Assembly: GCA_905234125.1 (NCBI GenBank)
Contig: CAJOGQ010000002.1
Coordinates: forward strand, 455 to 64,454
Source: an uncultured Bacteroidaceae bacterium
Lineage (GTDB): Bacteria > Bacteroidota > Bacteroidia > Bacteroidales > Bacteroidaceae
Direction of reading: 5' to 3'
DNA: 64,000 nucleotides
A program made the position numbers and the translations under genes. This document shows, in pieces, positions 141 through 60,670 of the stretch; position 1 is the stretch's first letter, and each line of letters opens with the position of its first letter. Under the pieces are notes generated by a model. It saw only the letters and a program-made list of their open reading frames with translations, made no database searches and had not been told where the DNA came from.

Positions 141-2405
141 ATGTCTATGATTCAACAGAAAGTGAGCCTGTTCCAGAACCTGCGGGCAGTGTCCAGCAAG
201 GCGATTGACCTGGAGGAGGTGGTGAGACTGATCCAGTATGACCTGGACGTGACAGAAAAGACGGAGGCGTATCGCCAGATGAAGCGGATCCTCGGGAAGC
301 CGAAGGCGGACGAGGAGGTGAAGGAGCAACGGATGCCGGCGGTGTCGGTGGCGGTGCTCTTCGATGGGATCGGGAGGAAGGCTCCGCATGTGCTGGGAGT
401 GACGGGGCTGGCGCTGTGCGATATTGATCATATCGCAAGTGAAAAGGGAAAAGTGAAAAGTGAAAAATTTGCTACCGCCATCGACGAGGCCTTTGAAAAG
501 GCGAAGGGGGATCCTCACACGCTCATTGCCTACCGCACCATCAGCGACGAGGGACTACGGATTATCTATCGATATGTGCGGGGAAACTCTCAACTCTCAA
601 CCCTAAACTCTCAACCATCATTAACCCTCATTCCCTGGAAGGCGGCCTTCCTGAAGGGCAACCAGCACTTTGCGGAGGTGGTGGGGCATGCGTATGATGC
701 GGGGTGCAGTGACTACACGCGGCTGTGTGGGTTGGCGCACGATCCCGATGTGTATGTGAACTGGGAAGCGGAGCCGTTTGTGGTGACGGACGAAGAAGTC
801 TTGGCGGCGAACTTCGACGGGAAGGAGGAGAAGGGGAAGCCCAGGAAGGAGTATCCGGCAGGGACGCATCAGGTGGGCGTGGAGGAGGCATGGCCCAAGG
901 TGGAGCAGACCCTGCAGCGGCGGCAGATGGTCTATGAGAGCGGACACCACCACGACTACGTGATGCACGCGGCGTTCCTCTTCAACCGCTATGGGGTGGA
1001 TGAGGACGAGCTGCAGGAGTGGGCTGACACGGAGTGGAGCAACTACGATGCCAAGCAACGCAAAGCGACCATCAGGAGCTGCTACAAGAAGACGGAGGAG
1101 CATGGCACGTGGCGGCTGAACCGTCAGGGACGGAAGGGAAAGGAGACCTCGATGATCACCCTGCCTGAGATCCGCGAGTGGCTGAAGGGGCATGTGGAGG
1201 TCATCTACAACGTGGTGACGGACATGTCGATGTGGCGGCGTCCACAGGATGCGGACTGGCAGCAGTTGGACGAGCGTGTGGTGCGCTCCATGCGCTGCCA
1301 GATGGCCTTGGACACGGGCAAGCGTGTGCTGAGGACGGATGTGGAGGATGTGCTCAAGAGCGACTTCGCACGGCTCTACCATCCCGTCAGGGAGTATGTG
1401 GAGACACTGCCCCAGTGGGACGGGACAGACCGTGTGGGGGAACTCTGCAGTCACCTCACGGCAGAGGCGGTGCAGCAGCATCAGACACCCGAAGAGGCGC
1501 AGGAGCTGCTTCGCTGGGCTTTGCACAAGTGGATGGTGGCGATGGTGGCGACGTGGATGAGCGACAGCATGACCAACCACTCCATCTTCGTGCTCATCGG
1601 CGCACAGGGCATCTACAAGACCACCTTCTTCCGCCACCTCCTGCCTCCACCCCTCTGGATGTACTTCTGGGAGAACGCCCACAACTCCTTCTCGTCGAAA
1701 GACGACCATCTGGCACTGGCCGAGAACTGCGTGGTGGAGATAGAGGAGATAGACCTGCAGAGTCCACGCGACATCTCCGAACTGAAAGCCTTGGCCACGA
1801 GCGAGAAGGTGAAGGAGCGCAGACCCTACGCACGGTTCCGTGAGGAGAAGCACCGCCTGGCCTCGTTCTGCGGGTCGGGCAACCAGGAACGTTTCCTCAG
1901 CGACGACACGGGCAACCGGCGATGGCTCTGCTTCAAGGTGAGCCACATTGACGACCCACGGCAGTGGGGAATGGACTATGACCAGCTCTATGCCCAGCTG
2001 CGCGACGAGTGGCGACAGGGCTTCCAGCATTGGTTCGACACGGAGGAGCAGCGGCGTGTGGAGCGCCAGAACCAGTGCTTCCGCATCGAGAGCGACGAGG
2101 AGCAGCTCATCCGCACCCACCTGCGGCCACCACGTGTGGGCGAGAAGATCACCCTGATGAATGCGGCCAGCATCTGCCAGTGCATCAACGGGGGAATTGT
2201 GGGCAGGGGACTGAGCACGAGGAAGGTGAGCTTAGCGATGGGGCGACTCGGATTCAAGAGCATGCACACCAAGGCCGGCAACTTCTTCAAGGTGTTCCAA
2301 ATACCCGTCAATGAGATACAGCCCTCCCTGGCCATCCCATGCGATGAATCGGAGGAGGAAGGCACGGATGAGCCAACCGTACAGCAAGGCGAATTGCCCT
2401 TTTGA
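141..2405 (+). CDS. VirE-like (virulence-associated protein E family) primase/helicase-type P-loop protein with a VirE_N/BT4734-like N-terminal domain
   Basis: 754-aa ORF. It has the Walker A-like segment LIGAQGIYKTTFFRHL and a Walker B-like segment VVEIEEID. The layout matches the VirE family common in Bacteroidales islands and phage-like elements. Confidence 0.75.
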   Translation: MSMIQQKVSLFQNLRAVSSKAIDLEEVVRLIQYDLDVTEKTEAYRQMKRILGKPKADEEVKEQRMPAVSVAVLFDGIGRKAPHVLGVTGLALCDIDHIASEKGKVKSEKFATAIDEAFEKAKGDPHTLIAYRTISDEGLRIIYRYVRGNSQLSTLNSQPSLTLIPWKAAFLKGNQHFAEVVGHAYDAGCSDYTRLCGLAHDPDVYVNWEAEPFVVTDEEVLAANFDGKEEKGKPRKEYPAGTHQVGVEEAWPKVEQTLQRRQMVYESGHHHDYVMHAAFLFNRYGVDEDELQEWADTEWSNYDAKQRKATIRSCYKKTEEHGTWRLNRQGRKGKETSMITLPEIREWLKGHVEVIYNVVTDMSMWRRPQDADWQQLDERVVRSMRCQMALDTGKRVLRTDVEDVLKSDFARLYHPVREYVETLPQWDGTDRVGELCSHLTAEAVQQHQTPEEAQELLRWALHKWMVAMVATWMSDSMTNHSIFVLIGAQGIYKTTFFRHLLPPPLWMYFWENAHNSFSSKDDHLALAENCVVEIEEIDLQSPRDISELKALATSEKVKERRPYARFREEKHRLASFCGSGNQERFLSDDTGNRRWLCFKVSHIDDPRQWGMDYDQLYAQLRDEWRQGFQHWFDTEEQRRVERQNQCFRIESDEEQLIRTHLRPPRVGEKITLMNAASICQCINGGIVGRGLSTRKVSLAMGRLGFKSMHTKAGNFFKVFQIPVNEIQPSLAIPCDESEEEGTDEPTVQQGELPF
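438..467. repeat. GTGAAAA-type heptamer array (4 units) in frame inside the VirE-like gene
   Basis: The sequence is GTGAAAA GGGAAAA GTGAAAA GTGAAAA, translated as SEKGKVKSEKF. Confidence 0.85.
585..616. repeat. AACTCTC-type heptamer array (4+ units) in frame inside the VirE-like gene
   Basis: The sequence is AACTCTC AACTCTC AACCCTA AACTCTC AACC, translated as NSQLSTLNSQP. Confidence 0.85.
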
Positions 2406-3499: not shown

Positions 3500-3515
3500 T
3501 CAGACGGAGCCTGAA

Positions 3516-3557
3516 GTGAAAAGTGAAAAGTGAAAAGTGAAAAGTGAAAAGTTAAAA
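3516..3557. repeat. Tandem heptamer array, (GTGAAAA)x5 plus a degenerate unit
   Basis: Five perfect GTGAAAA units (3516-3550) are followed by GTTAAAA. The array starts 17 nt after the stop of the HU-like gene. Confidence 0.95.
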
Positions 3558-3768: not shown

Positions 3769-4179
3769 ATGAGGCGGATTGATCTGATTGTTGTACATTG
3801 CTCTGCCACGCGATGTGACCGCCCCTTCACGGTGGAAGCCCTGATCCGATGTCACGACAAGCGCTTCGGATTCACGGGCTACCACTACTACATCACCCGA
3901 AATGGACGCACCTACCAGACCAGACATGAGCATCTGGTGGGTGCCCATGCCCGGGGGTATAACCAACACTCGTTGGGGGTGTGCTACGAAGGGGGGCTGG
4001 ACGAGCGTGGAAATCCTGCCGACACCCGTACAGATCGGCAGAAGAAAGCACTCTTGAAACTGCTCCGACGACTGAAGGAGGCTCATCCCGATGCAAAGAT
4101 CCTCGGACATCGTGACCTTCCGCATGTAGCCAAGGCCTGTCCCTGCTTCGATGCCGAGACTGAGTACCAGAACCTGTAA
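3769..4179 (+). CDS. N-acetylmuramoyl-L-alanine amidase (Amidase_2 / PGRP fold)
   Basis: 136-aa ORF. It carries motifs typical of AmpD/T7-lysozyme-type amidases: IVVHCSAT, GYHYYI, HARGYN and LGHRDL. Confidence 0.8.
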   Translation: MRRIDLIVVHCSATRCDRPFTVEALIRCHDKRFGFTGYHYYITRNGRTYQTRHEHLVGAHARGYNQHSLGVCYEGGLDERGNPADTRTDRQKKALLKLLRRLKEAHPDAKILGHRDLPHVAKACPCFDAETEYQNL

Positions 4180-5125: not shown

Positions 5126-5129
5126 TAGA

Positions 5130-5162
5130 GGGGCAAGGAGCAAGGGGTAAGGAGCAAGAGGA
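5130..5162. repeat. GRGCAAG heptamer array (4.5 units) filling the SDR-rnhB spacer
   Basis: The sequence is GGGCAAG GAGCAAG GGGTAAG GAGCAAG AGGA, and it ends directly at the rnhB ATG (5163). Confidence 0.9.
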
Positions 5163-5943: not shown

Positions 5944-7065
5944 ATGAAGGCTTTAAGAACTACATTCGCAGCAGTCATTCTCTTCATCGGAGCAATGACA
6001 GTAAACGCTCAGAGCATGAGCATCGCAGCTATGCGCAGCAATGCACGGTTCTTGACCGATCGCATGGCTTACACCCTCGGTATCCGCGACCCATACCTCA
6101 TCGACGAGATCTATCGCATCAACTATGACTACATTTGGGGTGTGAACGAGTATCTGGACGATGTAGCACTGGGATACTATTACAACGACTACATGACTGT
6201 GGTGGAAGCACGTGACGTGGCTCTCCAAAACCTGTTGGGCTACACCCTCTGGAATCGTCTCATCAACTACACCTACTTCCACCGTCCCATCGTGTTCGCC
6301 AATCGTGGCTGGCACTTCTCCATCTACGACTACGACCGTTACGGTGTGAATCGTTTCTACTACCACGCACCACGTCCATTGGTGACCTACGTAGGCGGAC
6401 ACTTCTTCCGTCCGATGGCTCCACGCGGTGGCAGAATCGTGGCTCCAGCTCCTCACGCAGTTCCTCGTGGCGGTGTGGTTCCTCGTCCTGGTGGTGCTCC
6501 TGCTCCTGGTGGTGCATATCGTGGTGCAGTGCCTCGCGGTGGTCAGATGAACACGCCCGCCCCACGCATGAACAACAACAACCGCAACATGGGTGGCAAC
6601 TACAATCATAACTATAATAATAATGTGAATAACAATAACAACAACGTGAACATCAATGTGAACAGCAATGCGAACGCTCACAGCAATCCTGGAATGAATC
6701 GTGGCAACGCTAACATGGGTGCTTCCAATATGAATCGTGGCAATGCCAACATGGGTGCTTCCAATATGAATCGTGGCAATGCCAACGCAGGTGCTCCAAA
6801 CATGAACCGTAGCACTCCCAACATGGGCAACCAGATGCGTAGCGGTAGCAACATGAACAGCTCTTCCCGTCAGCCTCAGACTCGTCCACAGATTCAACAG
6901 CAGACTCGCACCAGCGCACCTTCTTTCACCAATGCGTCGATGACCACTCGTAGCAATGCAGGTGCAACGATGAGCAGAGGAGGAGGCGCAACGATGAATC
7001 GCGGTGGAGGCGCAACAATGAATCGCGGAGGTGGTCCAGTAGGCCGTGGTGGAGGACGCAGATAA
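5944..7065 (+). CDS. Secreted hypothetical protein with an Asn/Gly/Arg-rich repetitive C-terminal half
   Basis: 373-aa ORF with the signal peptide MKALRTTFAAVILFIGAMTVNAQ. A Tyr/aromatic-rich N-domain is followed by a PRGG-rich segment, poly-Asn and tandem repeats. I recognise no family. Confidence 0.6.
   Translation: MKALRTTFAAVILFIGAMTVNAQSMSIAAMRSNARFLTDRMAYTLGIRDPYLIDEIYRINYDYIWGVNEYLDDVALGYYYNDYMTVVEARDVALQNLLGYTLWNRLINYTYFHRPIVFANRGWHFSIYDYDRYGVNRFYYHAPRPLVTYVGGHFFRPMAPRGGRIVAPAPHAVPRGGVVPRPGGAPAPGGAYRGAVPRGGQMNTPAPRMNNNNRNMGGNYNHNYNNNVNNNNNNVNINVNSNANAHSNPGMNRGNANMGASNMNRGNANMGASNMNRGNANAGAPNMNRSTPNMGNQMRSGSNMNSSSRQPQTRPQIQQQTRTSAPSFTNASMTTRSNAGATMSRGGGATMNRGGGATMNRGGGPVGRGGGRR
6697..6804. 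repeat. 36-bp coding tandem repeat x3 (NRGNANMGASNM)
   Basis: The units are 6697-6732, 6733-6768 and 6769-6804, nearly identical. A second 24-bp x3 repeat (GGATMNRG) lies at 6961-7032. Confidence 0.9.
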
Positions 7066-7224: not shown

Positions 7225-9072
7225 ATGACCATAGAAGAGAAACTCATAGCAGGTGTACAGCAAGCCGTGAAGGCATTGTACGACCTCGACGCGACTGCTC
7301 AACAGGTGCAGTTGCAGAAGACCCGTGACGAATTTGAAGGACACCTCACCGTGGTGGTGTTCCCCTTTGTGAAAGCAGCCAGAAAGTCACCTGAAATGGT
7401 GGGTGAGGAGATAGGAAAATACCTCGTGGAGAATGTGAGTGATGTGGTGGCCAAATACAACGTTGTCAAGGGCTTCCTCAATCTCGTCATCAGCGATGCT
7501 CCTTGGATTGACCTGCTCAACCAGATCAACGCCGACCCAAAGTTCGGTTTCCTGCCTGTCACAGAGCAGAGTCCTTTGGTGATGATTGAATACTCATCGC
7601 CCAACACCAACAAGCCCCTTCACCTCGGCCACGTGCGCAACAACCTCCTTGGTTCTGCCCTTGCACGCATCGTCGAGGCCAATGGCAACAAGGTGGTGAA
7701 GACCAACATCGTCAACGACCGTGGCATCCACATCTGCAAGTCCATGCTCGCATGGCTCAAGTGGGGCAATGGCGAGACTCCTGAATCCTCTGGCAAGAAA
7801 GGCGACCACCTCATCGGCGACTACTACGTGGCCTTCGACAAGCATTATCGTGCTGAGTGTGCAGAACTGGCCAAGCAGTACGAAGCTGAGGGCATGAGTG
7901 CCGATGACGCCAAGGAGAAAGCCAAGCAGGAGGCTCCCCTCATCAAGGAAGCCCATGAGATGCTTGTCAAATGGGAGCAGAACGACCCTGAGGTGCGCAG
8001 TCTCTGGAAGAAGATGAACGAGTGGGTTTATGCCGGATTTGACGAGACCTACAAGATGATGGGCGTAAGCTTCGATAAGATCTATTATGAGTCAGACACC
8101 TACCTCGAAGGCAAGGAAAAGGTGATGGAGGGTCTTGAGAAAGGCTTATTCTATCGCCGCGAAGACGGTTCCGTGTGGGCTGACCTCACCAGCGAAGGGC
8201 TTGATGAGAAACTATTGTTGAGAAGTGACGGTACATCCGTCTACATGACGCAAGATATCGGCACCGCCAAACTTCGTTTCCAGGACTACCCCATTGACAA
8301 GATGATCTACGTGGTGGGCAACGAGCAGAACTACCACTTCCAGGTGCTCTCCATCCTGCTCGACAAACTTGGCTTCAAGTGGGGTAAAGATCTTGTCCAC
8401 TTCTCATACGGCATGGTGGAACTTCCCAACGGTAAGATGAAGAGCCGTGAAGGCACCGTAGTTGATGCCGACGACCTCATGGCCGCCATGATTGATGATG
8501 CTTACGAGGCCAGCAAGGAACGTGTGAAGCAGACTGATATGCCTGAAGAAGAAGCTCGTGAAGTGGCTCGCAAGGTAGGACTCGGAGCCCTCAAGTACTT
8601 TATCCTCAAAGTGGATGCACGCAAGAACATGCTCTTCAATCCTGAAGAGTCCATCGACTTCAACGGCAACACAGGTCCTTTCATCCAGTACACTTACGCA
8701 CGCATCGCCTCTATCCTGAGGAAGGCAAAGGATCAGGGAATCTTGGAGCAAGGTGCAAGTGGCAAGGAGCAAGAACTTTCGTCCAGCGCAGGGGCTGGTC
8801 AGCTCTCCACTAAGGAAACAGAGCTTATTCAGAAACTCAGCCAGTTCCCAGTGGCACTTCGTCAGGCAGGCACCGACTACAGTCCCTCTGGCATTTGCAA
8901 CTACTGCTACGAGCTCACCAAGGCCTTCAACCAGTTCTACCACGACTTCACCATCCTTGGCGAACAAAATGAAGACCTGCGTCAGTTCCGTCTCTCCCTG
9001 GCTAAAGCAGTAGCCAAGGTCATCAGTCTCGGCATGGGACTCTTAGGTATCGAGATGCCTGAGAGGATGTAA
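7225..9072 (+). CDS. argS: Arginine--tRNA ligase
   Basis: It has the class I HIGH motif (PNTNKPLHLGHVRN), the KMSKS-like motif GKMKSREG, and a DALR-type C-terminus ending in M. The start was trimmed to the ATG downstream of the promoter box. Confidence 0.9.
   Translation: MTIEEKLIAGVQQAVKALYDLDATAQQVQLQKTRDEFEGHLTVVVFPFVKAARKSPEMVGEEIGKYLVENVSDVVAKYNVVKGFLNLVISDAPWIDLLNQINADPKFGFLPVTEQSPLVMIEYSSPNTNKPLHLGHVRNNLLGSALARIVEANGNKVVKTNIVNDRGIHICKSMLAWLKWGNGETPESSGKKGDHLIGDYYVAFDKHYRAECAELAKQYEAEGMSADDAKEKAKQEAPLIKEAHEMLVKWEQNDPEVRSLWKKMNEWVYAGFDETYKMMGVSFDKIYYESDTYLEGKEKVMEGLEKGLFYRREDGSVWADLTSEGLDEKLLLRSDGTSVYMTQDIGTAKLRFQDYPIDKMIYVVGNEQNYHFQVLSILLDKLGFKWGKDLVHFSYGMVELPNGKMKSREGTVVDADDLMAAMIDDAYEASKERVKQTDMPEEEAREVARKVGLGALKYFILKVDARKNMLFNPEESIDFNGNTGPFIQYTYARIASILRKAKDQGILEQGASGKEQELSSSAGAGQLSTKETELIQKLSQFPVALRQAGTDYSPSGICNYCYELTKAFNQFYHDFTILGEQNEDLRQFRLSLAKAVAKVISLGMGLLGIEMPERM
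8745..8776. repeat. GRGCAAG-family heptamer array (4 units) in frame inside argS
   Basis: The sequence is GAGCAAG GTGCAAG TGGCAAG GAGCAAG (8746-8773), translated as EQGASGKEQE. Confidence 0.85.
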
Positions 9073-20171: not shown

Positions 20172-20194
20172 CTTGCCCCTTGCTCCTTGCCCCT
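20172..20194. repeat. GRGCAAG-family heptamer array (3 units, reverse orientation)
   Basis: The sequence is CTTGCCC CTTGCTC CTTGCCC CT, in the spacer between the DUF2207-type gene and coaX. Confidence 0.85.
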
Positions 20195-20212: not shown

Positions 20213-20917
20213 ATGAAACTACTGATTGACATCGGCAACACTTCTGCCAAGCTGGCAGTGATGGATGACGGCATCTTACATTATGAACGGCGTCATGAGT
20301 CGTGGAGCGATACGTTTTCACGGCTCATGAGCCAGTATCCCATTTCCGATGTGCGTCTGTCCACGGTGGCAGGTGAAGATGCTGAACTGAACGAGGCTTT
20401 GGCACAGTTGAATGTGCCTGTCCGTTGGCTCTCTGCTGCTGTTCCTTGTCCTGTCAAGCCCATCGCCAATGTGCCTCTTGGTTTAGGAGCCGATCGATGG
20501 GCGGCTGATATAGGTGCCATCGTCCAAGACCCTGACCACACCCTGCTTGTCATCGATGCAGGCACTTGCCTCACCTACGATGTCATTGCTCGTGAGGGAG
20601 CGTACTTGGGAGGTGCCATCTCGCCTGGCGTACAACTGCGACTCAACGCCATGCATGAGCACACAGCCTTGTTGCCTCAAATCGAGGCTGAGCAGGAGGC
20701 TGTGCTGTTGGGGTACGACACACGCACCCACATGCTCTCTGCTGCTGTCAATGGCACACGTTTCGAGATAGAAGGGTACATCAGGCAGTTGTTGGGCATG
20801 TATCCAGACCTGCATGTCTTCATCACAGGAGGCAACACCTTCCAATTCTCAGAAGACATCACCTGTCCCATCACCCACGACCCCTATCTGGTCTTTCGTG
20901 GCCTTAGTGCCATCTAA
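20213..20917 (+). CDS. coaX: Type III pantothenate kinase
   Basis: 234-aa ORF with an ASKHA fold and the motifs LLIDIGNTSAK and GADRW. Confidence 0.85.
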   Translation: MKLLIDIGNTSAKLAVMDDGILHYERRHESWSDTFSRLMSQYPISDVRLSTVAGEDAELNEALAQLNVPVRWLSAAVPCPVKPIANVPLGLGADRWAADIGAIVQDPDHTLLVIDAGTCLTYDVIAREGAYLGGAISPGVQLRLNAMHEHTALLPQIEAEQEAVLLGYDTRTHMLSAAVNGTRFEIEGYIRQLLGMYPDLHVFITGGNTFQFSEDITCPITHDPYLVFRGLSAI

Positions 20918-20920
20918 CCT

Positions 20921-20942
20921 GTCAACTCTCAACTGTCAACTA
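20921..20942. repeat. AACTCTC-family heptamer array (3 units)
   Basis: The sequence is GTCAACTCTCAACTGTCAACTA. Its reverse complement supplies the TGA stop of the 20936..21361 gene. Confidence 0.8.
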
Positions 20943-21361
20943 TCCCCTCTCCTTTCCCCCACAATCATGATGACTTCGTCCTTCAACTCATCAGGCAGTT
21001 CTACTGCACGCAGTTGAAGGGAACGAACCCATCCTGCCACTTCGTCCTCTCTCATCGTGTAGAGCACTTCGCGAAATTCTTCGATTTCCTCCGACGAATA
21101 CATATCGCTTTCCTTCCCACGAAAGCGGTCAAGTTCCTCATCATTATAATATTCTATCTGTTTGCTGATAGCCGCCAACAGACTTTCCTTCTCACAGGTT
21201 TCGTGTTGGCCACAGCACTCCATGTCCTCCACCTGCTTGATGGAAGGCAATTCCGTAATCTCTCCCCTTTTCAGTTGCCCTTTCAGCTTCCGTTCACGCA
21301 TCCAGCCTGCCACGAAAGCCAAAGCACCCAAAAGGACAAGTCCAAGAATCAGATAAGACAT
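20936..21361 (-). CDS. Hypothetical single-pass membrane protein with a Cys-rich motif and an acidic C-terminal domain
   Basis: 141-aa ORF with the N-terminal TM segment YLILGLVLLGALAFVAGW and the motif MECCGQHETCEK. Its start overlaps the aroA 3' end by 13 nt. Confidence 0.55.
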   Translation of the reverse strand: MSYLILGLVLLGALAFVAGWMRERKLKGQLKRGEITELPSIKQVEDMECCGQHETCEKESLLAAISKQIEYYNDEELDRFRGKESDMYSSEEIEEFREVLYTMREDEVAGWVRSLQLRAVELPDELKDEVIMIVGERRGDS

Positions 21362-22677
21362 GGGATTTCAAAACTGATAGTTGAAAGTTGAGAGCTGGGA
21401 GTTGAGGGTTGGGGGTTGAAGGTTGGGAGGTCAAAACCAACGGCTTTCAAGTCCTTCCAATAGAAAGGATAGGATTTGGACACCACCTGAGGATTGTTGA
21501 TGATGATGCTCCCCCGTTTCAAAGCCACAGGCGCAAAAGCCATTGCCATACGATGATCCTCGTAAGTGTCGATGCACTCCTCTTGCTCCTCGCCCCCTGC
21601 TCCTTGCTCCTTCACTCCATCCCATATCAGTTCACTGTCATTCCTGTCTTCCAAACGGAATCCCAACTTGGCGAGTTCCCGTTTCAAAGCCTCTATGCGG
21701 TCTGTTTCCTTGATTTTCAGGCTCTGCAGACCTGTGAAATGGAAGGGCATACCCAGCATGCAACAAGTCACCACAAACGTCTGTGCCAAGTCGGGCATAT
21801 CCACAAAGTCCTCATCCAATCGCTCCACACATTGGCCATTCTTCCTCAACACCACATCTTCACCCCGATATTCCGTGCTCACGCCCAAGCGTTCAAACAC
21901 TTTCGCCCCACGGCTGTCGCCTTGCAGACTCTCTGCAAACAAGCCATGCAACACCACCTCAGCATCCTCATTCGGAGCCAAAGCCACCACCTCATACCAA
22001 TAGCTGGCAGCGCTCCAGTCGCTCTCCACCCGAAAATCGCAGGGCTGGTAACGAACAGGCTCCACCACGATGGTCTGTGCATCAGTCCACCCCGCCTTCG
22101 CACCAAAAATACGCATCATCGACAACGTCATATCGATGTATGGCCGGCTCACCACTTCCCCCGTCAGCTTCAGCGTCAGTCCCTTTTTCAGTCGAGGGGC
22201 AATCAGCAGCAACGCAGAGATAAATTGTGAACTGACATTGCCAGCCAGCTCCACTTCTCCACCCTCCATCTGAGGCACACCCGTGATGCGCAAAGGAGGA
22301 AACCCTTCTTTCTCCACATACTCCACCTGCGCGCCCAGCGTTCGCAGCGCCTCCACCAAGATGCCAATAGGCCTTTGCTTCATGCGTTCACTGCCCGTGA
22401 TGGTCTGCGTGCCCTCCAGCACCGCCAGCATAGCCGTCGAGAAACGCATGGCCGTGCCAGCCGCACCAATGTCAATCGTTTCAAAATTCTTCTGCATCCG
22501 CTTCGCCATCCACATCGCCATCACCTTCGTATCGTCACAGATACTCACATTCGCCAAAGTCGAATCTCCCTCAGTCAACGAACCGATAGCCAATGCCCTA
22601 TTGCTGATGCTCTTCGACGGAGGAAGATTTACTTCACCCTTGATCTCCTTGGGTGCAATCACTTTCATCTGTTCCAT
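21349..22677 (-). CDS. aroA: 3-phosphoshikimate 1-carboxyvinyltransferase (EPSP synthase)
   Basis: It has LPPSKSISNRAL near the N-terminus and the EPSP synthase fold throughout. The start was trimmed to MEQMKVIAPKE (ATG at 22677), downstream of the promoter box at 22706-22713. Confidence 0.9.
   Translation of the reverse strand: MEQMKVIAPKEIKGEVNLPPSKSISNRALAIGSLTEGDSTLANVSICDDTKVMAMWMAKRMQKNFETIDIGAAGTAMRFSTAMLAVLEGTQTITGSERMKQRPIGILVEALRTLGAQVEYVEKEGFPPLRITGVPQMEGGEVELAGNVSSQFISALLLIAPRLKKGLTLKLTGEVVSRPYIDMTLSMMRIFGAKAGWTDAQTIVVEPVRYQPCDFRVESDWSAASYWYEVVALAPNEDAEVVLHGLFAESLQGDSRGAKVFERLGVSTEYRGEDVVLRKNGQCVERLDEDFVDMPDLAQTFVVTCCMLGMPFHFTGLQSLKIKETDRIEALKRELAKLGFRLEDRNDSELIWDGVKEQGAGGEEQEECIDTYEDHRMAMAFAPVALKRGSIIINNPQVVSKSYPFYWKDLKAVGFDLPTFNPQPSTPSSQLSTISFEIPCLI
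21376..21430. repeat. Heptamer array (about 7 units, GTTGRRG / AACTCTC-related) encoding the AroA C-terminal tail
   Basis: On the plus strand the sequence is AGTTGAA AGTTGAG AGCTGGG AGTTGAG GGTTGGG GGTTGAA GGTTGGG. On the gene strand it reads DLPTFNPQPSTPSSQLSTI. Confidence 0.85.
21578..21613. repeat. GRGCAAG-family heptamer array (4 units) in frame inside aroA
   Basis: The plus strand reads CTTGCTC CTCGCCC CCTGCTC CTTGCTC (21583-21610). The gene strand encodes KEQGAGGEEQE. Confidence 0.85.
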
Positions 22678-28233: not shown

Positions 28234-29757
28234 TTATTTGAGTTTTTCCTTATTGTAAATCTTTTTGCCCCCCACAATCAGTATGGATTTCTTTGACTGA
28301 ACGTCAACCTTCCGTCCGCTCAGGTCGTAAGAGTTGAGAGTTGACAATTGAGAGTTGACAGTTTTGGGGGCTTGGATAGCCAAAGGGTCTTGGCTGAATT
28401 GCCACGAGTCGAAGTCGAACAGAGAGGAACCATTGCCAGAGAACGTGAAGTAGAGGTCACAAACGCCAGTGATGGGGGTTCTCAGTTCGCAGGTCACGTC
28501 CTGCCACTCACCGTTGGTTGGCTCAATGGACACAGTGCCCTTGATGGTGCCCGTCTTGCTTCCGATACGGACAGACATCGAACCCTTCTGCTCAGCCTTC
28601 ACCTTGGCTGTGAACACCTTTGCTCCAGCCTCGCCAAAGTCCACATTGCGCACCTTGATATAGTCGCCACTGCTGATGTTCGTCACATAACAACCCGTGT
28701 AGTCGCCCATGCACTTCACACCCTGACATTGGTTGATGGTCTCAGCCTCCTGGGGTGCGTATGGGTCGAGCGTCTGCAAGGGAGCGACACCCTTGGCCGT
28801 GTATTTGATGAAGGGCAACGAACCATCTTCATTAGGCGTGAACTCCTCCACACAAGTCGAACGTTTGTAGCCACCACCACCCGACAACTTGCCGTTGTGA
28901 TAGAACAGATAATGGTGTCCCTTGAATTCCACTGAGCCTCCATGAATGGTGAAGCTGTTGTCTGCCAACCCCATCACCTTGCCCTGATACGTCCAAGGGC
29001 CAGTTATCTTGTCAGCTGTCGAATAAGCCCAATGCTCAGGCACGCCGCCAGCCGCATACTCCAAATAATACTTGCCATTCCTCTTGTACACCCACGAAGC
29101 CTCCTCAAAGTTGGTCTTCGGCGTGCCATCATCGTTATAACCCTTATAGGGGCCAAAAGCCTTCTCGTCCTTCGTCTTCACCTCATTCTCACCACCTACA
29201 ATCGCCATCATCGTCTTCGACAGCTTGGCATACCACAGCATGTTGTTACCATAGAAGAGGTAAGCCTGTCCGTCGTCGTCAATAAAAACTGTAGGGTCTA
29301 TCTTGAACCATCCCTTCACCAGGGGCTTCTTGATGGAATCCTTGTAAGGGCCAGCCGGATGGTCAGCCACAGCCACACCGATGCCAGGATATGCCTCTCC
29401 TTTGATGGTGGCCGTCACATACCAATACCACTTTCCGTTGCGCTCTATGCACTGGCTTGCCCAGCAGTCGTTGTCAGTCTTCGCCCACGCCTTAAAGGTC
29501 TCTCCCGTCAGCGGAGTGCCCCGATAAGTCCAGTTCACCATATCGACCGTGCTGTACAACAACCAGTCCTTCATGGTGAAGTAGTTATTCTCCGTCACGT
29601 CCTCATCGTGGTCCACAAAGAGATACAACGTGTCGTTGTGCACGTATGGTGCAGGGTCAGGCGTGTAGCGGTCACAGATGATAGGGTTCTGTGCCGCAGC
29701 CATCATAGAGGCCAGCGTGATGCCCCCCAAAACAAGCAATCTTTTCATCTTTCTCAT
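28234..29757 (-). CDS. Glycoside hydrolase family 43 with a CBM6-like module and a T9SS C-terminal sorting domain
   Basis: It has a signal peptide and a GH43 five-bladed propeller (DPAPYVHNDTLYLF, WASQCIE). A CBM6-like segment follows. The C-terminus YDLSGRKVDVQSKKSILIVGGKKIY is typical of Por/T9SS CTDs. The start is 29757 or 29748. Confidence 0.8.
   Translation of the reverse strand: MRKMKRLLVLGGITLASMMAAAQNPIICDRYTPDPAPYVHNDTLYLFVDHDEDVTENNYFTMKDWLLYSTVDMVNWTYRGTPLTGETFKAWAKTDNDCWASQCIERNGKWYWYVTATIKGEAYPGIGVAVADHPAGPYKDSIKKPLVKGWFKIDPTVFIDDDGQAYLFYGNNMLWYAKLSKTMMAIVGGENEVKTKDEKAFGPYKGYNDDGTPKTNFEEASWVYKRNGKYYLEYAAGGVPEHWAYSTADKITGPWTYQGKVMGLADNSFTIHGGSVEFKGHHYLFYHNGKLSGGGGYKRSTCVEEFTPNEDGSLPFIKYTAKGVAPLQTLDPYAPQEAETINQCQGVKCMGDYTGCYVTNISSGDYIKVRNVDFGEAGAKVFTAKVKAEQKGSMSVRIGSKTGTIKGTVSIEPTNGEWQDVTCELRTPITGVCDLYFTFSGNGSSLFDFDSWQFSQDPLAIQAPKTVNSQLSTLNSYDLSGRKVDVQSKKSILIVGGKKIYNKEKLK
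28331..28363. repeat. AACTCTC-family heptamer array (4 units) forming the linker before the T9SS CTD
   Basis: The plus strand reads GAGTTGAGAGTTGACAATTGAGAGTTGACAGTT. The gene strand encodes VNSQLSTLNS. Confidence 0.85.
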
Positions 29758-29778
29758 GGGTCGAAAAATTATTTTGTG

Positions 29779-29786
29779 CAAAGGTA
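29779..29786 (-). promoter_or_regulatory. -7 promoter box (TACCTTTG on the minus strand)
   Basis: It lies 22 nt upstream of the ATG at 29757. Confidence 0.5.
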
Positions 29787-29949
29787 GTGAAAAATTTGAG
29801 AAAGTGAGCAAGAGAGAAGGCATTATCGTTTCTATGCACGACAAATTGGTGTAAAATCGAGAGAGGAACAGGATTAATGTCATTATTTGGAGATACCCAC
29901 CATTTGGGAAATTTGTAAATAGGCTAAAGATAAAACAACGCCGTTATGA

Positions 29950-30030
29950 ACGAGCCACCGGCTCAACGCCTTTGAGCTACCGGCTCGTCGCCCTTGAGCT
30001 ACCGGCTCAACGCCTTGAGGGTACCGGCTG
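29950..30030 (+). repeat. REP-like ~80-bp palindromic element, copy A
   Basis: The sequence is ACGAGCCACCGGCTCAACGCCTTTGAGCTACCGGCTCGTCGCCCTTGAGCTACCGGCTCAACGCCTTGAGGGTACCGGCTG. It lies just downstream of the CotH-like gene stop (30036). Confidence 0.85.
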
Positions 30031-32384: not shown

Positions 32385-33509
32385 ATGAATCGTCAGGAGA
32401 TTATAGCAAGCATTGCGCTGAGCAAACTGAAGGGGTTGAACCTGCTGAATGCCAGAACACTGGTGGAGGCGATGGGTTCGGCTTCTGAGGTGTTGGCTCA
32501 TCGGAAGGACATCGTGAAGATGATTCCCAACGTGAGCCAGCGCTTGGTGGAGGCTTTTGCCGATGTGGATGTGGCCTTGAAAGAAGCTGAGCAGGAGATG
32601 GAGTTTGTGGAGAAGAAGAATCTGAAGGTCTTCACGCTGATGGATGAGGATTATCCAGGACGTCTGAGAGAGTGTGAGGATGCTCCTTTGGTGCTCTTCT
32701 ATTGCGGTTCTGCCGACTTGAACAGCCCTCACATCATCAATATGGTGGGCACAAGAAAGTGCTCGGAGTATGGGAAGGAAATCTGCAAGAACTTCATTGC
32801 CGACCTGAAACGCATGGCTCCAGACATCGTCATTGTGAGCGGCTTGGCATACGGCATCGACATCTGTGCTCATCGTGCCGCTTTGGACAATGGGATGGCC
32901 ACAGTGGGCGTTTTGGCTCATGGACTGGACACCATCTATCCTACGATGCATCGGCAGACAGCTGGCGAAATGGTACATCAGGGTGGCGGACTGCTGACGG
33001 AATACACCACCCACACGGAACCTGAGAAGCTGAACTTTGTGCGCAGAAACAGGATTGTGGCTGGCCTTTCAGATGCCTGCATCGTGGTAGAGAGTGCCAA
33101 GAAAGGCGGGTCACTCATCACGGCTGAGTTGGCGATGGACTATAACCGTGAAGTGTTTGCTTTCCCTGGCCGTGTGTATGATGAACACAGCATCGGATGC
33201 AACAACCTCATCAAACAGCATCAGGCCACCCTGCTGACGGATGCTAAGGACTTCTTGGAGACGATGGGGTGGATGACTGCAGATGTGAAGAAACCAGAGG
33301 CCATACAGCAGGAACTGTTTCCCGACCTCACGGATGAAGAAAAGGCTCTCCTGAACACCCTGAAGGATGTGGATGAGAAACACATCAACCAGATAGCCAT
33401 CGACACGAATATCCCCTATTCCCGTGCCAGCATGATTCTCTTCGACTTGGAGATGAAGGGGCTGGTGAAGGCACTTGGGGGGGCAAGATACAAAAGATGT
33501 AGAATGTAG
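32385..33509 (+). CDS. dprA: DNA-processing protein DprA
   Basis: It has a Rossmann-like DprA core (GLAYGIDICAHRAAL, GGSLITA) and a winged-helix C-terminus. The start was set to the ATG at 32385 rather than the GTG at 32349. Confidence 0.85.
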   Translation: MNRQEIIASIALSKLKGLNLLNARTLVEAMGSASEVLAHRKDIVKMIPNVSQRLVEAFADVDVALKEAEQEMEFVEKKNLKVFTLMDEDYPGRLRECEDAPLVLFYCGSADLNSPHIINMVGTRKCSEYGKEICKNFIADLKRMAPDIVIVSGLAYGIDICAHRAALDNGMATVGVLAHGLDTIYPTMHRQTAGEMVHQGGGLLTEYTTHTEPEKLNFVRRNRIVAGLSDACIVVESAKKGGSLITAELAMDYNREVFAFPGRVYDEHSIGCNNLIKQHQATLLTDAKDFLETMGWMTADVKKPEAIQQELFPDLTDEEKALLNTLKDVDEKHINQIAIDTNIPYSRASMILFDLEMKGLVKALGGARYKRCRM

Positions 33510-33541
33510 AATGTAAAATGGTAAATGTAAAATGTAAAATG
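33498..33541. repeat. GTARAAT heptamer array (6 units)
   Basis: The sequence is (T)GTAGAA TGTAGAA TGTAAAA TGGTAAA TGTAAAA TGTAAAA TG. It contains the dprA stop (TAG, 33507-33509) and the ATG at 33539. Confidence 0.9.
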
Positions 33542-33658
33542 AAAAAGACTTTTCTTATCATCATATTCTCCCTGCTTGCTATATCAATATGGGCATAGCG
33601 AGAAGAGTTTTTCAGCACCATCAGCATCACCCAGAATGCAGGTGGAAGACTTGGTACG

Positions 33659-34516
33659 ATGGATAAAGCTGATGAGGATGCTTACAGACAGGCCAAGGAG
33701 ATGCTCAGGAATCCCAACTCCACAAAGAAACAGCTTCGGAGGTCTGGAAAGACGCTGAAAAGCATCTATAAGAAGAAGAATGCTGAAATGAAGCTCATCA
33801 TGAAAGAGGTGGCAGAAAAAACCGACATCACGTTCTCATTGGAGGAAGCAGGAGGAGCTTGGCTTGGAGGTGAAGAGTACAGTTTCAAGGTGACAATAGA
33901 GGCTCCTTCACAAGATGCCTACGACAAAGCCCTGCAAGCCATCAGCTATGTTGCAGAAGCGACAAGACAGGATGCTTTCATTGAGAATCTCGGAGCGATG
34001 GATGAGTCTGAGATTACAGACGAGGGACTGCTGAAGGGTGATTACACGCCCTTTGTACATATTCCTTTTACAAAGCGCTTGTCGCAGCAAGAGCTGGCGG
34101 TGGTGCAAGATGTGTTTAATGCGGAAAGCAGTGATGACATTCCTCTCGACGCCACCATCACCAAAGATGAGATATGCTTTTCACTCCCTACATGGAAATT
34201 GGGAGAGAATCCGACCATCGAAGACTATCAGGAGTTATATAATCAGTGGTCAAACAAAATAAAAGAAACGTTCAGCAATGGAAAAGAAAGAAACCTTAAA
34301 GGATTGGTTGGAGAGACGTATGGACGAAGATATGAAAAGTCTCGGTTTCACCAGGCAGACAACGCCTACTCAGAAGAGCCAACAAGGGACTACACCAATC
34401 AAAGGAACCATTACATTTCTGAAAGGAAAATCAGCCAAGAAGGCAAAGGGGCGCTCTCAGCGTCCGAAGGACAAGCGATAAAGTCCTATGTGGAAAAGCT
34501 CCTTTTGGGGAAATAA
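33659..34516 (+). CDS. Hypothetical protein (possibly the body of a secreted protein whose signal peptide is cut off by an in-frame TAG)
   Basis: 285-aa ORF with no family I recognise. A signal-peptide-like mini-ORF (33539-33598) lies in the same frame, separated by one TAG. Confidence 0.55.
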   Translation: MDKADEDAYRQAKEMLRNPNSTKKQLRRSGKTLKSIYKKKNAEMKLIMKEVAEKTDITFSLEEAGGAWLGGEEYSFKVTIEAPSQDAYDKALQAISYVAEATRQDAFIENLGAMDESEITDEGLLKGDYTPFVHIPFTKRLSQQELAVVQDVFNAESSDDIPLDATITKDEICFSLPTWKLGENPTIEDYQELYNQWSNKIKETFSNGKERNLKGLVGETYGRRYEKSRFHQADNAYSEEPTRDYTNQRNHYISERKISQEGKGALSASEGQAIKSYVEKLLLGK

Positions 34517-36410: not shown

Positions 36411-38438
36411 TTATTTCTTCTTTTTCTTTTTATTGAAGGCTTCGTAGAAAGGTTGGGACTCTACTTGGCCTTCGAAGAACTTGGCCCATTCGGCAGCGCC
36501 TTTGGGACCACGAGCAGAGGTGTAGCCACGTTCCTCACGGGAGGGTTTTTCCTTCGATTTGGTTGTTCTGGCAGATTTGGCGGAGGCACCACGAATGACT
36601 CCACTGCCCTTCTTGGGTTTTCTCTCGCCAAAGGAGCGGCGATTCTCTTCATGATGACTCTCACGTTTGGGGGTGCGTTGTCCTTCAGGCTGGTCAGTCA
36701 CCTCCACATTCACTTTTCTGCCATCGAAGTCAGTTCCATTGAGCACGTTGAGGACGGTCTTGGTCTGCTGTTCTGGCACCTCGAAGAAGGAGAAGTTCTG
36801 CATCAGGTCGATGCGTCCAAGGTCGATGCGTGCTCCTTGTGCCACACGATTGATGAAGCCCATGAAGACTTTGGGGCTGATGCCGTCTTTCTTGCCAAGA
36901 TTGATGAAGAGGCGGGTGTAGCCAGCCTCAGCAGTGCGTGAACGGTCTCCACCACGACCTCTCGCTCCTCGCTCCTTGCTCCTTGCTCCGAACTCCTTGT
37001 CCCCACGACGGTCTCCTTTTTCTGATGGCTGAATGATTTCAGGAGCGTTCTTATAATAGTTGAGGAAGGTGTTGAACTCCATCGACACCATGCGCTTGAT
37101 GAGGTCTTCCTTCTCCATCATGTCGAACTTGCGATAAACCTCTGGGAGGAAGGGAGCAATCTCCTCCTCATCTACAGAGACTTTCTCGATGTCGTCAATC
37201 ACCTTATAGAGTTGCTTGGCACAAATCTCCTGACCTGTCGGCAAGATGCCAGGCACGAACTTCTTCTGAATCTGCTGTTCGATGGCACGAACCTTGCCCT
37301 TCTCCTTCACATGGATGATGGAAATGGAGGTGCCTGAACGTCCTGCACGTCCTGTTCTGCCCGAACGGTGAGTGTAGCTCTCGATGTCGTCAGGCAGACC
37401 ATAGTTGATGACGTGGGTGAGTTCGTCCACATCCAATCCACGAGCCGCCACATCTGTAGCCACCAGCAACTGCACACGGTGCTGACGGAACTTTTGCATG
37501 GTCAGGTCACGCTGAGCCTGTGAGAGTTCGCCGTGCAAGGATTCTGCATTGTAGCCATCACGGATGAGCTTGTCTGCAATTTCCTGCGTCTCCATTCGAG
37601 TGCGGCAGAAGATGATTGCATAAATCTCTGGGTAATAGTCTGCCACACGCTTCAGGGCATTGTACTTATCCCTTGCGCTCACCATATAATAGATGTGGTT
37701 CACATGCTCAGCCCCTTCGTTACGGCTTCCCACCACAATCTCCTTAGCATCGTGCAAGTAGTTCTTCGATATGCGTTCAATCTCCTTGCTCATCGTGGCT
37801 GAGAAGAGCAAAGTGTTTCGTTCAGCAGGGACTCCTGCGAGGATGGTGTCGATACTTTCTGAAAAGCCCATGTTCAGCATCTCATCGGCCTCGTCCAGCA
37901 CCACATTTTCCACTGTTCCGAGCTTGGCCACTCCACGCTCCATGAGGTCAACGAGGCGGCCAGGCGTGGCGACAATCACCTGCACTCCCTTCTTCAGGGC
38001 TCGAATCTGAGGCTCGATGCTGGCGCCACCATAGACAGCGAGCACATGCAGTCCCTTGATATATTTGGAATAGTCCTTCAGGTCGTCCGTAATCTGCAAG
38101 CAAAGTTCTCGTGTGGGAGCCATGATGACAGCCTGCACATCGGTACGGTTCGTGTCGATTTTCTGCAACACGGGCAGACCATACGCCGCCGTCTTTCCTG
38201 TTCCTGTCTGAGCCAGAGCGACGACATCGTTGTTGTGTCCCAATAAATAAGGGATGACCTTCTCCTGCACAGGCATCGGGGTGACGTAGCCCATCTCCTG
38301 GATGGCCTTCAAGATTTCGCCCGACACGCCCAATTCTTCGAAGGTATGCTCCACTTTAGGCATTTCGTTTTCTTCATGCATCGCTTGAAGCTCATTGTTC
38401 ATTCCTTGAGCTTCCAGCATTTCTTTAGTTTCTTCCAT
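36411..38438 (-). CDS. DEAD-box ATP-dependent RNA helicase (DeaD/CsdA-like with a DbpA-type RNA-binding domain and a basic tail)
   Basis: It has the Q motif (F..LG ... PMPVQ) and the motifs AQTGTGKT, DEAD, SAT and HRSGRTGRAG. The start is 38438 (a 14-nt overlap with the upstream kinase gene) or 38420. Confidence 0.9.
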   Translation of the reverse strand: MEETKEMLEAQGMNNELQAMHEENEMPKVEHTFEELGVSGEILKAIQEMGYVTPMPVQEKVIPYLLGHNNDVVALAQTGTGKTAAYGLPVLQKIDTNRTDVQAVIMAPTRELCLQITDDLKDYSKYIKGLHVLAVYGGASIEPQIRALKKGVQVIVATPGRLVDLMERGVAKLGTVENVVLDEADEMLNMGFSESIDTILAGVPAERNTLLFSATMSKEIERISKNYLHDAKEIVVGSRNEGAEHVNHIYYMVSARDKYNALKRVADYYPEIYAIIFCRTRMETQEIADKLIRDGYNAESLHGELSQAQRDLTMQKFRQHRVQLLVATDVAARGLDVDELTHVINYGLPDDIESYTHRSGRTGRAGRSGTSISIIHVKEKGKVRAIEQQIQKKFVPGILPTGQEICAKQLYKVIDDIEKVSVDEEEIAPFLPEVYRKFDMMEKEDLIKRMVSMEFNTFLNYYKNAPEIIQPSEKGDRRGDKEFGARSKERGARGRGGDRSRTAEAGYTRLFINLGKKDGISPKVFMGFINRVAQGARIDLGRIDLMQNFSFFEVPEQQTKTVLNVLNGTDFDGRKVNVEVTDQPEGQRTPKRESHHEENRRSFGERKPKKGSGVIRGASAKSARTTKSKEKPSREERGYTSARGPKGAAEWAKFFEGQVESQPFYEAFNKKKKKK
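36961..36990. repeat. GRGCAAG-family heptamer array (4 units) in frame inside the helicase gene
   Basis: The plus strand reads CTCGCTC CTCGCTC CTTGCTC CTTGCTC. The gene strand encodes GARSKERGAR. Confidence 0.85.
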
Positions 38439-47039: not shown

Positions 47040-48029
47040 ATGAATATAACAATGATTTCCCATAGCATCATCGCGTCAGCCATCCCCCTTTGGGGGTCGG
47101 GGGGCTTTCTTTTCATTGACTGGCAACCCTCCATCGAAGCCTTCTCCATAGGCTCCTTCAGCGTCCGCTGGTACGGCCTGCTCTGGTGCCTCGGCTTCCT
47201 CACCGCCTACCTCATCGTCCAGCGCCTCTACCGTCTGCAGAAAATAGAAGACGAGAAGTTCGAGCCCCTCTTCTTCTACTGCTTCGTCGGCGTGCTCGTC
47301 GGCGCCCGACTCGGCCACTGCCTCTTCTATGAGCCCGGCTACTACCTGACCGACGGCACCCATTTCCTCGAGATGTTCATCCCCTTCCACCACATGCCCG
47401 ATGGCTCCTGGAAGTATACTGGCTACGAAGGTCTCGCCTCCCACGGCGGAACCATCGGACTCATCATCGCTATGGCTCTCTACTGCCGCAAGACTAAAGT
47501 CCGTCCCTGGACAGTCATGGACAACGTCGCCATCGCTGTGCCCGCCATGGCCTGCCTCATCCGCCTCGGAAATCTGATGAACTCCGAAATCATTGGCAAC
47601 CCCACCGACCTCCCTTGGGGCTTCATCTTCCATACTCGCGACGCCCTCGTCGACGGAGTCCCCGCACCTCGCCATCCCGCCCAGCTCTACGAAGCCATCG
47701 CCTACCTCATCATCTTCATCCTTGGAGCCCTCATCTATTGGCACTCCTACAAGGCCACTCTCGCTCCTTGCTCCTCGCCCCTCGCTCCTAAGACCAGCTC
47801 CTCGCCCCTGGCACCTAAAACCGCTCCTGGCACCGGCTTCCATTTCGGCTTTTGCCTCGCCACCATCTTCACCTTCCGCTTCTTCATCGAGTTCCTCAAG
47901 AAGGAGCAAGTCGATTTTGAGCGCGGCATGGCTCTCGACATGGGTCAGCTCCTCAGCGTCCCCTTCATCCTCCTTGGCTGTTGGTGCATGTGGCACTCCC
48001 TGAAGAAAAGCAATCCCGTTCATGTGTGA
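47040..48029 (+). CDS. lgt: Prolipoprotein diacylglyceryl transferase
   Basis: It is a polytopic membrane protein with VRWYGLLWCLGF, SHGG and FRFFIEFLK. It also contains a repeat-encoded insertion (see findings). The exact start is uncertain. Confidence 0.85.
   Translation: MNITMISHSIIASAIPLWGSGGFLFIDWQPSIEAFSIGSFSVRWYGLLWCLGFLTAYLIVQRLYRLQKIEDEKFEPLFFYCFVGVLVGARLGHCLFYEPGYYLTDGTHFLEMFIPFHHMPDGSWKYTGYEGLASHGGTIGLIIAMALYCRKTKVRPWTVMDNVAIAVPAMACLIRLGNLMNSEIIGNPTDLPWGFIFHTRDALVDGVPAPRHPAQLYEAIAYLIIFILGALIYWHSYKATLAPCSSPLAPKTSSSPLAPKTAPGTGFHFGFCLATIFTFRFFIEFLKKEQVDFERGMALDMGQLLSVPFILLGCWCMWHSLKKSNPVHV
47758..47836. repeat. GRGCAAG-family array (reverse orientation, 4 units) plus a 27-nt tandem duplication, in frame inside lgt
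   Basis: The array CTCGCTC CTTGCTC CTCGCCC CTCGCTC (47760-47787) runs into TCCTCGCCCCT(C/G)GC(T/A)CCTAA(G/A)ACC repeated about 2.4 times. The encoded peptide is LAPCSSPLAPKTSSSPLAPKTAPGT. Confidence 0.85.
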
Positions 48030-56320: not shown

Positions 56321-56402
56321 GACGAGCCACCGGCTCAACGCCCTTGAGGCTCCGGCTCAACGCCTTTGAGCTACCGGCTCGTTGCCTTGGAGGTACCGGC
56401 TC
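56321..56402 (+). repeat. REP-like ~80-bp palindromic element, copy C
   Basis: The sequence is GACGAGCCACCGGCTCAACGCCCTTGAGGCTCCGGCTCAACGCCTTTGAGCTACCGGCTCGTTGCCTTGGAGGTACCGGCTC. It lies in the convergent intergenic region. Confidence 0.9.
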
Positions 56403-60553: not shown

Positions 60554-60572
60554 ACACATTTTAATTAGGAAA

Positions 60573-60659
60573 GAGGAATTGGGAATGAGGAATTGTTACT
60601 TTTTTTAAGAAAAAACGTCCAAAATGGCAAATAATACCCAATTCCTCATTCTTAATTCC
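60573..60659. repeat. 22-bp inverted repeat made of GGAATKR heptamers around a 43-bp A/T-rich spacer
   Basis: AGGAATTGGGAATGAGGAATTG (60573-60594) pairs with CAATTCCTCATTCTTAATTCCT (60638-60659), 20 of 22 complementary. It lies between two divergent promoters. Confidence 0.85.
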
Positions 60660-60670
60660 TCATTCTTTCT

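Follow-up and report, generated by a model that had tools for sequence, protein, structure and literature searches.

In the 64-kb window examined here (the whole stretch of 64,000 nt, from a rumen Prevotella-type member of the Bacteroidales), the segment at 28330-28363, which lies inside the gene of a GH43-CBM6 enzyme, is probably a degenerate heptanucleotide microsatellite, one of at least 17 in the window, generated by slippage and template switching and shaped by a selection filter. The seeds are presumably chance quasi-repeats; replication slippage, which would proceed in steps of 7 nt, and template switching are the most likely processes by which arrays form and change. Selection would then filter the products: intergenic spacers could retain them, and genes would tolerate them solely at positions that can take additional residues without damage (C-terminal tails, linkers between domains, and disordered surface loops). 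(GAGAGTT)n should be excluded from open reading frames (ORFs) unless every third unit is mutated, (AACTCTC)n would be allowed, and antisense copies would tend to end up as gene termini, where they supply stop codons. The encoded peptide, rich in Ser, Asn, Gln, Thr, and Leu, would act as a flexible spacer only, and a sequence-specific function need not be assumed.

Arrays were called with Tandem Repeats Finder (TRF; period 7, non-overlapping, score of at least 36, at least 3 copies), which returned 17 in the window where dinucleotide shuffles predict 0.05; every other period gave at most 4 arrays, far below period 7. Because of the degeneracy of the arrays, a strict period-7 detector (mismatch penalty of -3) recovered just 5, and TRF was used instead. 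In 822 kb of related metagenome contigs, fetched via GH43 homologues (886 kb together with the window), 104 period-7 arrays were counted against 0.8 expected. The 121 arrays of the combined set represent 84 canonical units, AACTCTC being the most frequent (n = 7). The four AACTCTC-type arrays of the window (585-615, 20913-20951, 21375-21429, and 28330-28363), which a preliminary description of this DNA had already reported, contain all of the 10 overlapping matches to (AACTCTC)3 with up to 3 mismatches, a pattern that occurred 0.00 times in 100 dinucleotide shuffles. On both counts a chance origin is rejected. An assembly artefact is likewise rejected, as the array-encoded peptides recur in independent NCBI, ENA, JGI, and Logan assemblies.

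Three of these four arrays lie inside ORFs, with the translations in VirE-like, GH43-CBM6, and AroA proteins that had been given before, and the fourth is placed between two stop codons. The remaining arrays belong to several unrelated unit families, including GGAGCAA/CTCGCTC (six arrays, at 5129, 8728, 20172, 21582, 36961, and 47760) and AAGTGAA (437 and 3514). About half of the heptamer arrays of the window are found within ORFs, essential genes included, and the housekeeping genes that hold them are argS, aroA, a DEAD-box helicase gene, and lgt (Table 1). Neither Rfam families nor tRNAs were found in the window.

The array of the GH43 gene comprises 4.9 copies (81% matches; 2.9-7.9 copies in the three further AACTCTC arrays) and contains a perfect 14-nt repeat of 1.9 copies. 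Its product, V-NSQLSTLNS-Y, occupies about residues 508-518 (KTVNSQLSTLNSYDLSGRK; wider context APKTVNSQLSTLNSYDLSGRK). An alignment of GH43 homologues shows a common ...FDFDSWQFxExPTxI, a hypervariable stretch of 10-25 residues, and then a C-terminal tag of the form YDLxGRR...GKK. The linker DNA of the homologues is itself periodic in heptamers, with units that differ from one to the other (AGTTCNN in L140, CTCTCCC in L174 and L175, AATGAAT in L180, TAAAGAA in L139), and in L126, L127, and L133 the period is 9 instead. In the AlphaFold model residues 502-514 form the low-confidence C-terminal segment, with a predicted local distance difference test score (pLDDT) below 50, and the tag adopts a small beta hairpin. 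The called start of this gene (549 aa) is probably too far upstream, because homologues are ~500 aa long and residues 1-38 score below 50; translation more likely begins with MRKMKRLL... (about 29757).

In the VirE/VapE-like protein both arrays are located at variable insertion points, where some homologues have no insert and others have unrelated low-complexity inserts; the insert of 437-466 is absent from P0244, P0245, P0248, and P0250. The AlphaFold model of the N-terminal 320 residues has a mean pLDDT of 83, and its sole internal segments below 50, residues 101-107 and 150-161, are the two array-encoded stretches. The structural check suggested in the preliminary description hence identifies the array segments of the GH43 and VirE-like models as linker or loop. 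The segment that holds this gene (window 1 to ~4156) is absent from the otherwise collinear conspecific contig L206, with which the alignment starts at 4157, and this absence suggests that its edge is a mobile-element boundary.

AroA homologues (60 of the 120 retrieved were aligned and inspected) end near ...VGFEIEAL, and among those inspected the ~22-aa extension is limited to the species of the window. Compared with the relative L203, in which the aroA stop codon overlaps the ATG of the next gene, the window carries 63 nt (9 x 7) of inserted in-frame sequence, with the direct repeat GTTTTGA on either side in phase with the units. At this aroA 3' junction L204, which is more distantly related, has a short array of another type (TAACTCT). 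The SQLST segments are thus absent from homologues of all three proteins, the comparison that had been proposed earlier, and the alignments support the reading that they are lineage-specific additions.

On the other side of the membrane-protein gene next to aroA, the array at 20913 contributes to the ends of two genes. The TAA of coaX (20915-20917) falls within a degenerate end unit, and the TGA of ORF 20936..21361 on the reverse strand reads as TCA on the forward strand (20936-20938), within the array, so that the donation of this stop codon by the array, as first described, holds. In relatives the product of the latter ORF ends two residues earlier, at ...GERRG. The view that stop-containing copies mark gene ends is supported. 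The 20913 array differs by approximately one unit from that of a 98.9%-identical strain. Between strains of this identity a dense patch of substitutions also affects the last coaX codons beside the array (20896-20923), which read VFRGLSAI or VFKGLGSL before the stop.

No insert is present at argS in relatives of at least 90% identity, and the array of the window extends an ancestral quasi-repeat (AAGGAAC AGGGAAT). The conspecific L206 (L206:11505-11593, equivalent to window 8729-8799), with flanks 99% identical, has an 88-nt insert consisting of an inverted pair of AACTGTC-family arrays (arms of 28 nt, 82% complementary) in place of the GGAGCAA-type array; between the two strains the array was replaced whole, not resized. 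The QLSTINYQLST of L206 represents the ancestral QLST in duplicate (21 nt), accompanied by an inverted copy (CAACTCTC quasi-repeat in QLSTKE). Pairwise indel mining of the related contigs, which offered few close pairs and only 42 gaps of at least 4 nt, gave 7-nt gaps as the modal class (7/42). Slippage and template switching at hot spots are favoured over random insertion because the 9 x 7 insert of aroA is flanked by a direct repeat in register, the argS alleles extend quasi-repeats, 7-nt gaps are modal, and the array at 20913 differs by about one unit between strains.

Random insertion, as assumed in the preliminary description, is also at odds with where coding arrays are found, since they cluster in a few permissive places. 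The main group lies 84-107 nt before the stop codon of tag-bearing proteins, that is, in the loop before YDL, and a second 33-51 nt before the stop, in the loop within the tag; the aroA 3' junction and the argS loop are recurrent hot spots. The tag itself (YDLxGRR..GIYIxNGKK) ends 94 different ORFs in the 886 kb. It had been taken for a type IX secretion system (T9SS) sorting domain, an assignment that curated models do not back: neither the tail nor the whole GH43 protein matches a T9SS type A C-terminal domain (CTD; TIGR04183 / Por_Secre_tail) in Pfam or NCBIfam, even at E<=10, and a profile built from 32 tags gave a weak match (E=0.28) to the RgpB CTD (5hfs, 7pq4). The same profile retrieved from the PDB a rumen arabinanase (4kca, E=5e-12) and 7jvi (E=2e-7), both tag-bearing. 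It is possible that the tag is a short sorting signal. Many large secreted-type proteins terminate with this tag, copies of which are located in the window at 28237-28329 and in the region 33780-33869. The pre-tag loop sometimes holds, with no heptamer array, a GC-rich palindrome (CCCCTCGGGGAGG or CCCCCTTTAGGGGG; L161 ~14050, L195 ~13820, L130 ~5640, L129 ~12770, L160 ~2580) that encodes SPRGG, PSREG, or STPFRG and forms another class of small insert at this permissive position.

The orientation of coding arrays is in part a matter of arithmetic. Since 7 and 3 have no common factor, translation of an array passes through all three frames and gives a seven-residue period (NSQLSTL), and a stop triplet of the unit comes in frame once per 21 nt. 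(GAGAGTT)n carries one TGA per unit and consequently a TGA in every frame within 21 nt, which makes a near-perfect antisense copy of at least three units impossible inside an ORF. All three coding copies of the window do have the AACTCTC strand as sense, as originally noticed; however, this orientation is forced by the arithmetic filter and the sample is too small to speak of a bias. The related claim that only non-terminating arrays survive in genes fits the about nine AACTCTC-like arrays in long ORFs of the 886 kb, all with AACTCTC as sense, but the rule is not absolute and the filter is leaky. The AAGTGAA array at 437-466 is read on its TGA strand, the sole unit with an in-frame TGA being changed to AAGGGAA, and the left arm of the L206 argS insert (CAGTTGA CAAGGGA CAGTTGA CAGTTGA) is read in the TGA orientation with its sole in-frame unit changed (AGTTGA to AAGGGA). 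Among the 49 coding arrays of the related contigs with exactly one stop-free strand, that strand is sense in 32 and the stop-containing strand in 17 (p=0.044); in the stop-strand-sense arrays inspected the in-frame unit is altered (e.g., TAATGAA TAATGAA AAACGAA TAATGAA). The observation that the preliminary description named as contrary to its finding, intact ORFs with the array in the TGA-containing orientation, was thus made in part.

Peptide chemistry is a second determinant of array orientation. Away from N-termini the A-rich strand is sense in 40 arrays vs. 17 (p=0.003), with peptides rich in S, N, L, T, and Q; the seven arrays located at most 60 nt from a start codon have the T-rich strand as sense, which suits signal-peptide cores. 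Within the GGAGCAA/CTCGCTC family, both strands of which are stop-free, the lgt array is read on the strand opposite to those at 8728 and 21582. Intergenic arrays show no strand preference with respect to flanking genes (A-rich 12 vs. 12).

Across genomes at large, at least 120 loci contain a perfect (AACTCTC)3, where ~0.3 are expected by chance in 596 Gb. The matches listed include Bacteroidales, Verrucomicrobiota, Planctomycetota, Fibrobacterota, Acidobacteriota, Cyanobacteria (also genomes of Chamaesiphon and Microcoleus), and other groups, and another 143 heptamer arrays, built from other units, are present in the listed loci (845 kb). The perfect repeat falls within an open frame of at least 600 nt in 64 of the 109 listed cases vs. 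57% of random windows, a test of ORF avoidance that is blurred by long antisense frames in high-GC genomes. In viral contigs AACTCTC was found at 44 loci and three control heptamers of the same composition at 5, 27, and 28; heptamer arrays are therefore generally common and AACTCTC is not unique, and the proposal that it is a uniquely favoured unit is unsupported. In L035, L038, and L066, from unrelated phyla, (AACTCTC)3 is present on both strands ~40-120 nt apart, forming inverted array pairs capable of hairpin formation, and in L103 and L104, again from unrelated phyla, it likewise occurs on both strands. In some IMG/VR contigs (L220, L237) a stretch of 15 kb includes 4-5 distinct arrays of perfect (AACTCTC)3.

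Several other explanations have to be weighed. The arrays might be copies of pre-existing arrays at other places, made through microhomology-mediated template switching or an as yet unknown kind of insertion with a 7-bp target duplication, so that a unit family spreads as a minimal mobile sequence. This is unlikely, although it can be said in its favour that the 56-nt core of the aroA insert is unlike its flanks and bounded by a 7-nt direct repeat, that conspecifics with 99%-identical flanks bear wholly different argS inserts (one of them an inverted array pair), that unit families recur within 64 kb (four AACTCTC and six GGAGCAA/CTCGCTC arrays), and that L035, L038, and L066 contain inverted array pairs. 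Nevertheless, the copies are non-identical and lack terminal inverted repeats and shared flanks, the units are highly diverse, control heptamers reach a similar abundance, ancestral quasi-repeats are extended in the argS alleles, and aroA offers the single empty-site comparison. A transposable element or miniature inverted-repeat transposable element was rejected, the copies having neither terminal inverted repeats nor shared flanks, differing in unit order and number, and showing one 7-nt flanking repeat (aroA).

Slippage followed by selection does not accommodate every observation equally well. AACTCTC-like units are also the commonest among intergenic arrays (7/52; genes of the related loci were taken as heuristic longest ORFs, so that coding and intergenic counts are approximate), and coding tolerance alone therefore fails to explain the unit preference. 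Ongoing slippage is seen for few arrays only, the GH43 and AroA arrays are invariant within the species, and the dissimilarity of the 56-nt aroA core to the flanking repeat makes local heptamer duplication plus drift a strained account of that insert, which may have a templated or transplanted origin. A dedicated register-keeping process, either array template switching or insertion with a 7-bp duplication, might repeatedly seed, invert, and replace arrays at permissive sites; this is rather doubtful but, if true, such a process would rapidly supply the proteins of Prevotellaceae and of several other phyla with new disordered linkers and C-terminal extensions, and their genes with stop codons; not even essential genes would be exempt, and strains of one species would come to differ in this way.

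The arrays could also be functional cis-elements (sites for DNA- or RNA-binding proteins, or translation or termination signals at gene boundaries), the coding copies being incidental. Many intergenic arrays do lie 0-15 nt from stop or start codons and may fill spacers (5129-5158, 20172-20194), and the 5129 array is conserved between strains, yet this reading is quite improbable in view of the lack of a consistent orientation to flanking genes, a unit diversity too great for one binding specificity, the absence of an Rfam match, and the free replacement of array content between strains. That the coding arrays are phase-variation switches, in which the change of one 7-nt unit would shift the frame and remove, for instance, the sorting tag of GH43, is very improbable: the unit length is not divisible by 3, and the GH43 array, with its perfect 14-nt repeat, stands immediately upstream of the sorting-type tag, but the units are degenerate, at least 10-14 independent conspecific assemblies agree in the peptides of the GH43 linker and the AroA tail and include no frameshifted variant, and on/off switching in essential genes (argS, aroA, lgt) would be lethal. 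Being fixed within the species and present in essential genes, the arrays are therefore not contingency switches. It is scarcely credible, finally, that SQLST is a peptide motif conserved for its function (as a site of modification or recognition, for instance, shared through descent or convergence) to which the DNA periodicity is secondary. The QLST beside the argS array is partly kept in relatives (QLSTKETE or ISISTKETE), but the segments are absent from GH43, AroA, and VirE-like homologues, the repeat units at homologous positions are unrelated, disorder is predicted for the segments, and one copy is non-coding.

With slippage and selection as the preferred explanation, the arrays are a local instance of heptanucleotide simple sequence repeats (SSRs), unusually often domesticated as protein loops, tails, and stop codons, and not a new biological system. 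Prokaryotic long SSRs with heptanucleotide units have been reported, as summarized in later papers, to be over-represented relative to other unit lengths, scattered phylogenetically, and mostly intergenic, with slippage proposed as their origin (Mrazek, Guo & Shah 2007, via PMC4679880, PMC4692102). The arrays described here resemble them, to the extent of those summaries, in their tandem 7-nt units and strong over-representation and differ in that about half are within ORFs, essential genes included, where they are translated as loops, linkers, or tails, and in the degeneracy of the units. A high density of short tandem repeats in Bacteroidota was found in a 2025 survey (PMC12699852), and a literature search for heptamer repeats in Prevotella returned only general reports on heptamer SSRs. 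Short tandemly repeated repetitive (STRR) sequences of cyanobacteria, the GGGGAYT repeats of Nostoc, and the GGGAATC repeats of Xanthomonas are likewise genome-wide tandem heptamers near gene boundaries that vary in length and sequence between close relatives but, unlike the window arrays, they are G-rich, G-quadruplex-capable, essentially intergenic, and from other phyla (PMC4692102). The TAACTGA direct repeats of Beggiatoaceae, Cyanobacteria, and some Bacteroidetes are also sporadic heptamers, often by gene ends; most of them precede a start codon by a few nt and keep a fixed orientation, and regulation has been suggested (PMC4679880), whereas the window arrays have many unit types and no intergenic orientation rule and cannot be assigned to this type. 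SSR contingency loci of Haemophilus and Neisseria share the in-ORF tandem repeat with a unit that is not a multiple of 3, and in contrast to them the window arrays are imperfect, fixed within the species, and found in housekeeping genes.

Identical short peptides in unrelated Prevotella proteins can accordingly be explained without common ancestry or function, which calls for caution before they are named domains or sorting signals. Non-triplet microsatellites can become protein linkers, tails, and stop codons, the signature being the repair of every third unit when the unit holds a stop. Loops of essential enzymes (ArgRS, AroA) can differ wholly between strains that are otherwise 99% identical, a matter of relevance for strain typing, gene calling, and protein clustering in rumen metagenomes.

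Table 1. Genes and heptamer arrays of the window, in order of position.
Feature	Position	Strand	Remarks
VirE/VapE-like gene	141..2405	+	BT4734-like_N, VapE-like, DUF3874
(AAGTGAA)4 array, VirE/VapE-like ORF	437..466	+	peptide SEKGKVKSEK
AACTCTC array	585..615	+	encodes NSQLSTLNSQ, aa 149-159, in the BT4734-like N-terminal domain (YVRGNSQLSTLNSQPS)
(AAGTGAA)6 array, intergenic	3514..3557	+	14 nt past a stop codon
(AGGRGCA)4 array	5129..5158	+	fills the 37-nt spacer of two co-directional genes
GGAGCAA-family array in argS	8728..8773	+	encodes LEQGASGKEQE
(CTTGCYC)3 array	20172..20194	+	spacer upstream of coaX
AACTCTC array, intergenic	20913..20951	+	between convergent genes
Conserved 141-aa membrane-protein gene	20936..21361	-	flanked by the 20913 and 21375 arrays
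aroA (EPSP synthase)	21349..22677	-	Pfam domain ends at aa 410 of 442
(CAACYYY)n array, AroA read-through C-terminal extension	21375..21429	- (AACTCTC strand)	peptide PSSQLSTISFEIPCLI*
GGAGCAA-family array in aroA	21582..21612	-	encodes EQGAGGEEQEE, variable loop
GH43-CBM6 gene	28234..29883	-	Pfam GH43 aa 65-354, CBM_6 aa 379-498
Conserved C-terminal tag YDLSGRKVDVQSKKSILIVGGKKIYNKEKLK	28237..28329	-	~30 aa, YDLxGRRV..GIYIxNGKKxxxK
Degenerate heptamer array AACTGTC AACTCTC AATTGTC AACTCTC AACTCT	28330..28363	-	linker between CBM6 and C-terminal tag
(ATGTAAA)7 array	33494..33546	+	spans the dprA stop codon
CTCGCTC/GGAGCAA-family array in DEAD-box helicase gene	36961..37002	-	
Heptamer array, AATTGAT unit	45780		
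CTCGCTC array in lgt	47760..47816	+	
Two heptamer arrays, AATTGGG and ATTCCTC types	60563..60667		divergent intergenic region

Repeats of other periods were also noted. An element of ~80 nt occurs in two copies (29952-30029 and 56324-56402), each of 3.6 tandem 22-nt units (GAGCYACCGGCTCAACGCCYTT) that bear a small hairpin (GAGCC-ACC-GGCTC) and each directly downstream of the stop codon of a gene; further period-22 arrays are located at 2558, 23818, 39351, and 41300. At 6694-6827, in the ORF of an N/G/M-rich protein (5944..7065), there is a 36-nt in-frame tandem repeat in which L206 differs from the window by exactly one unit.

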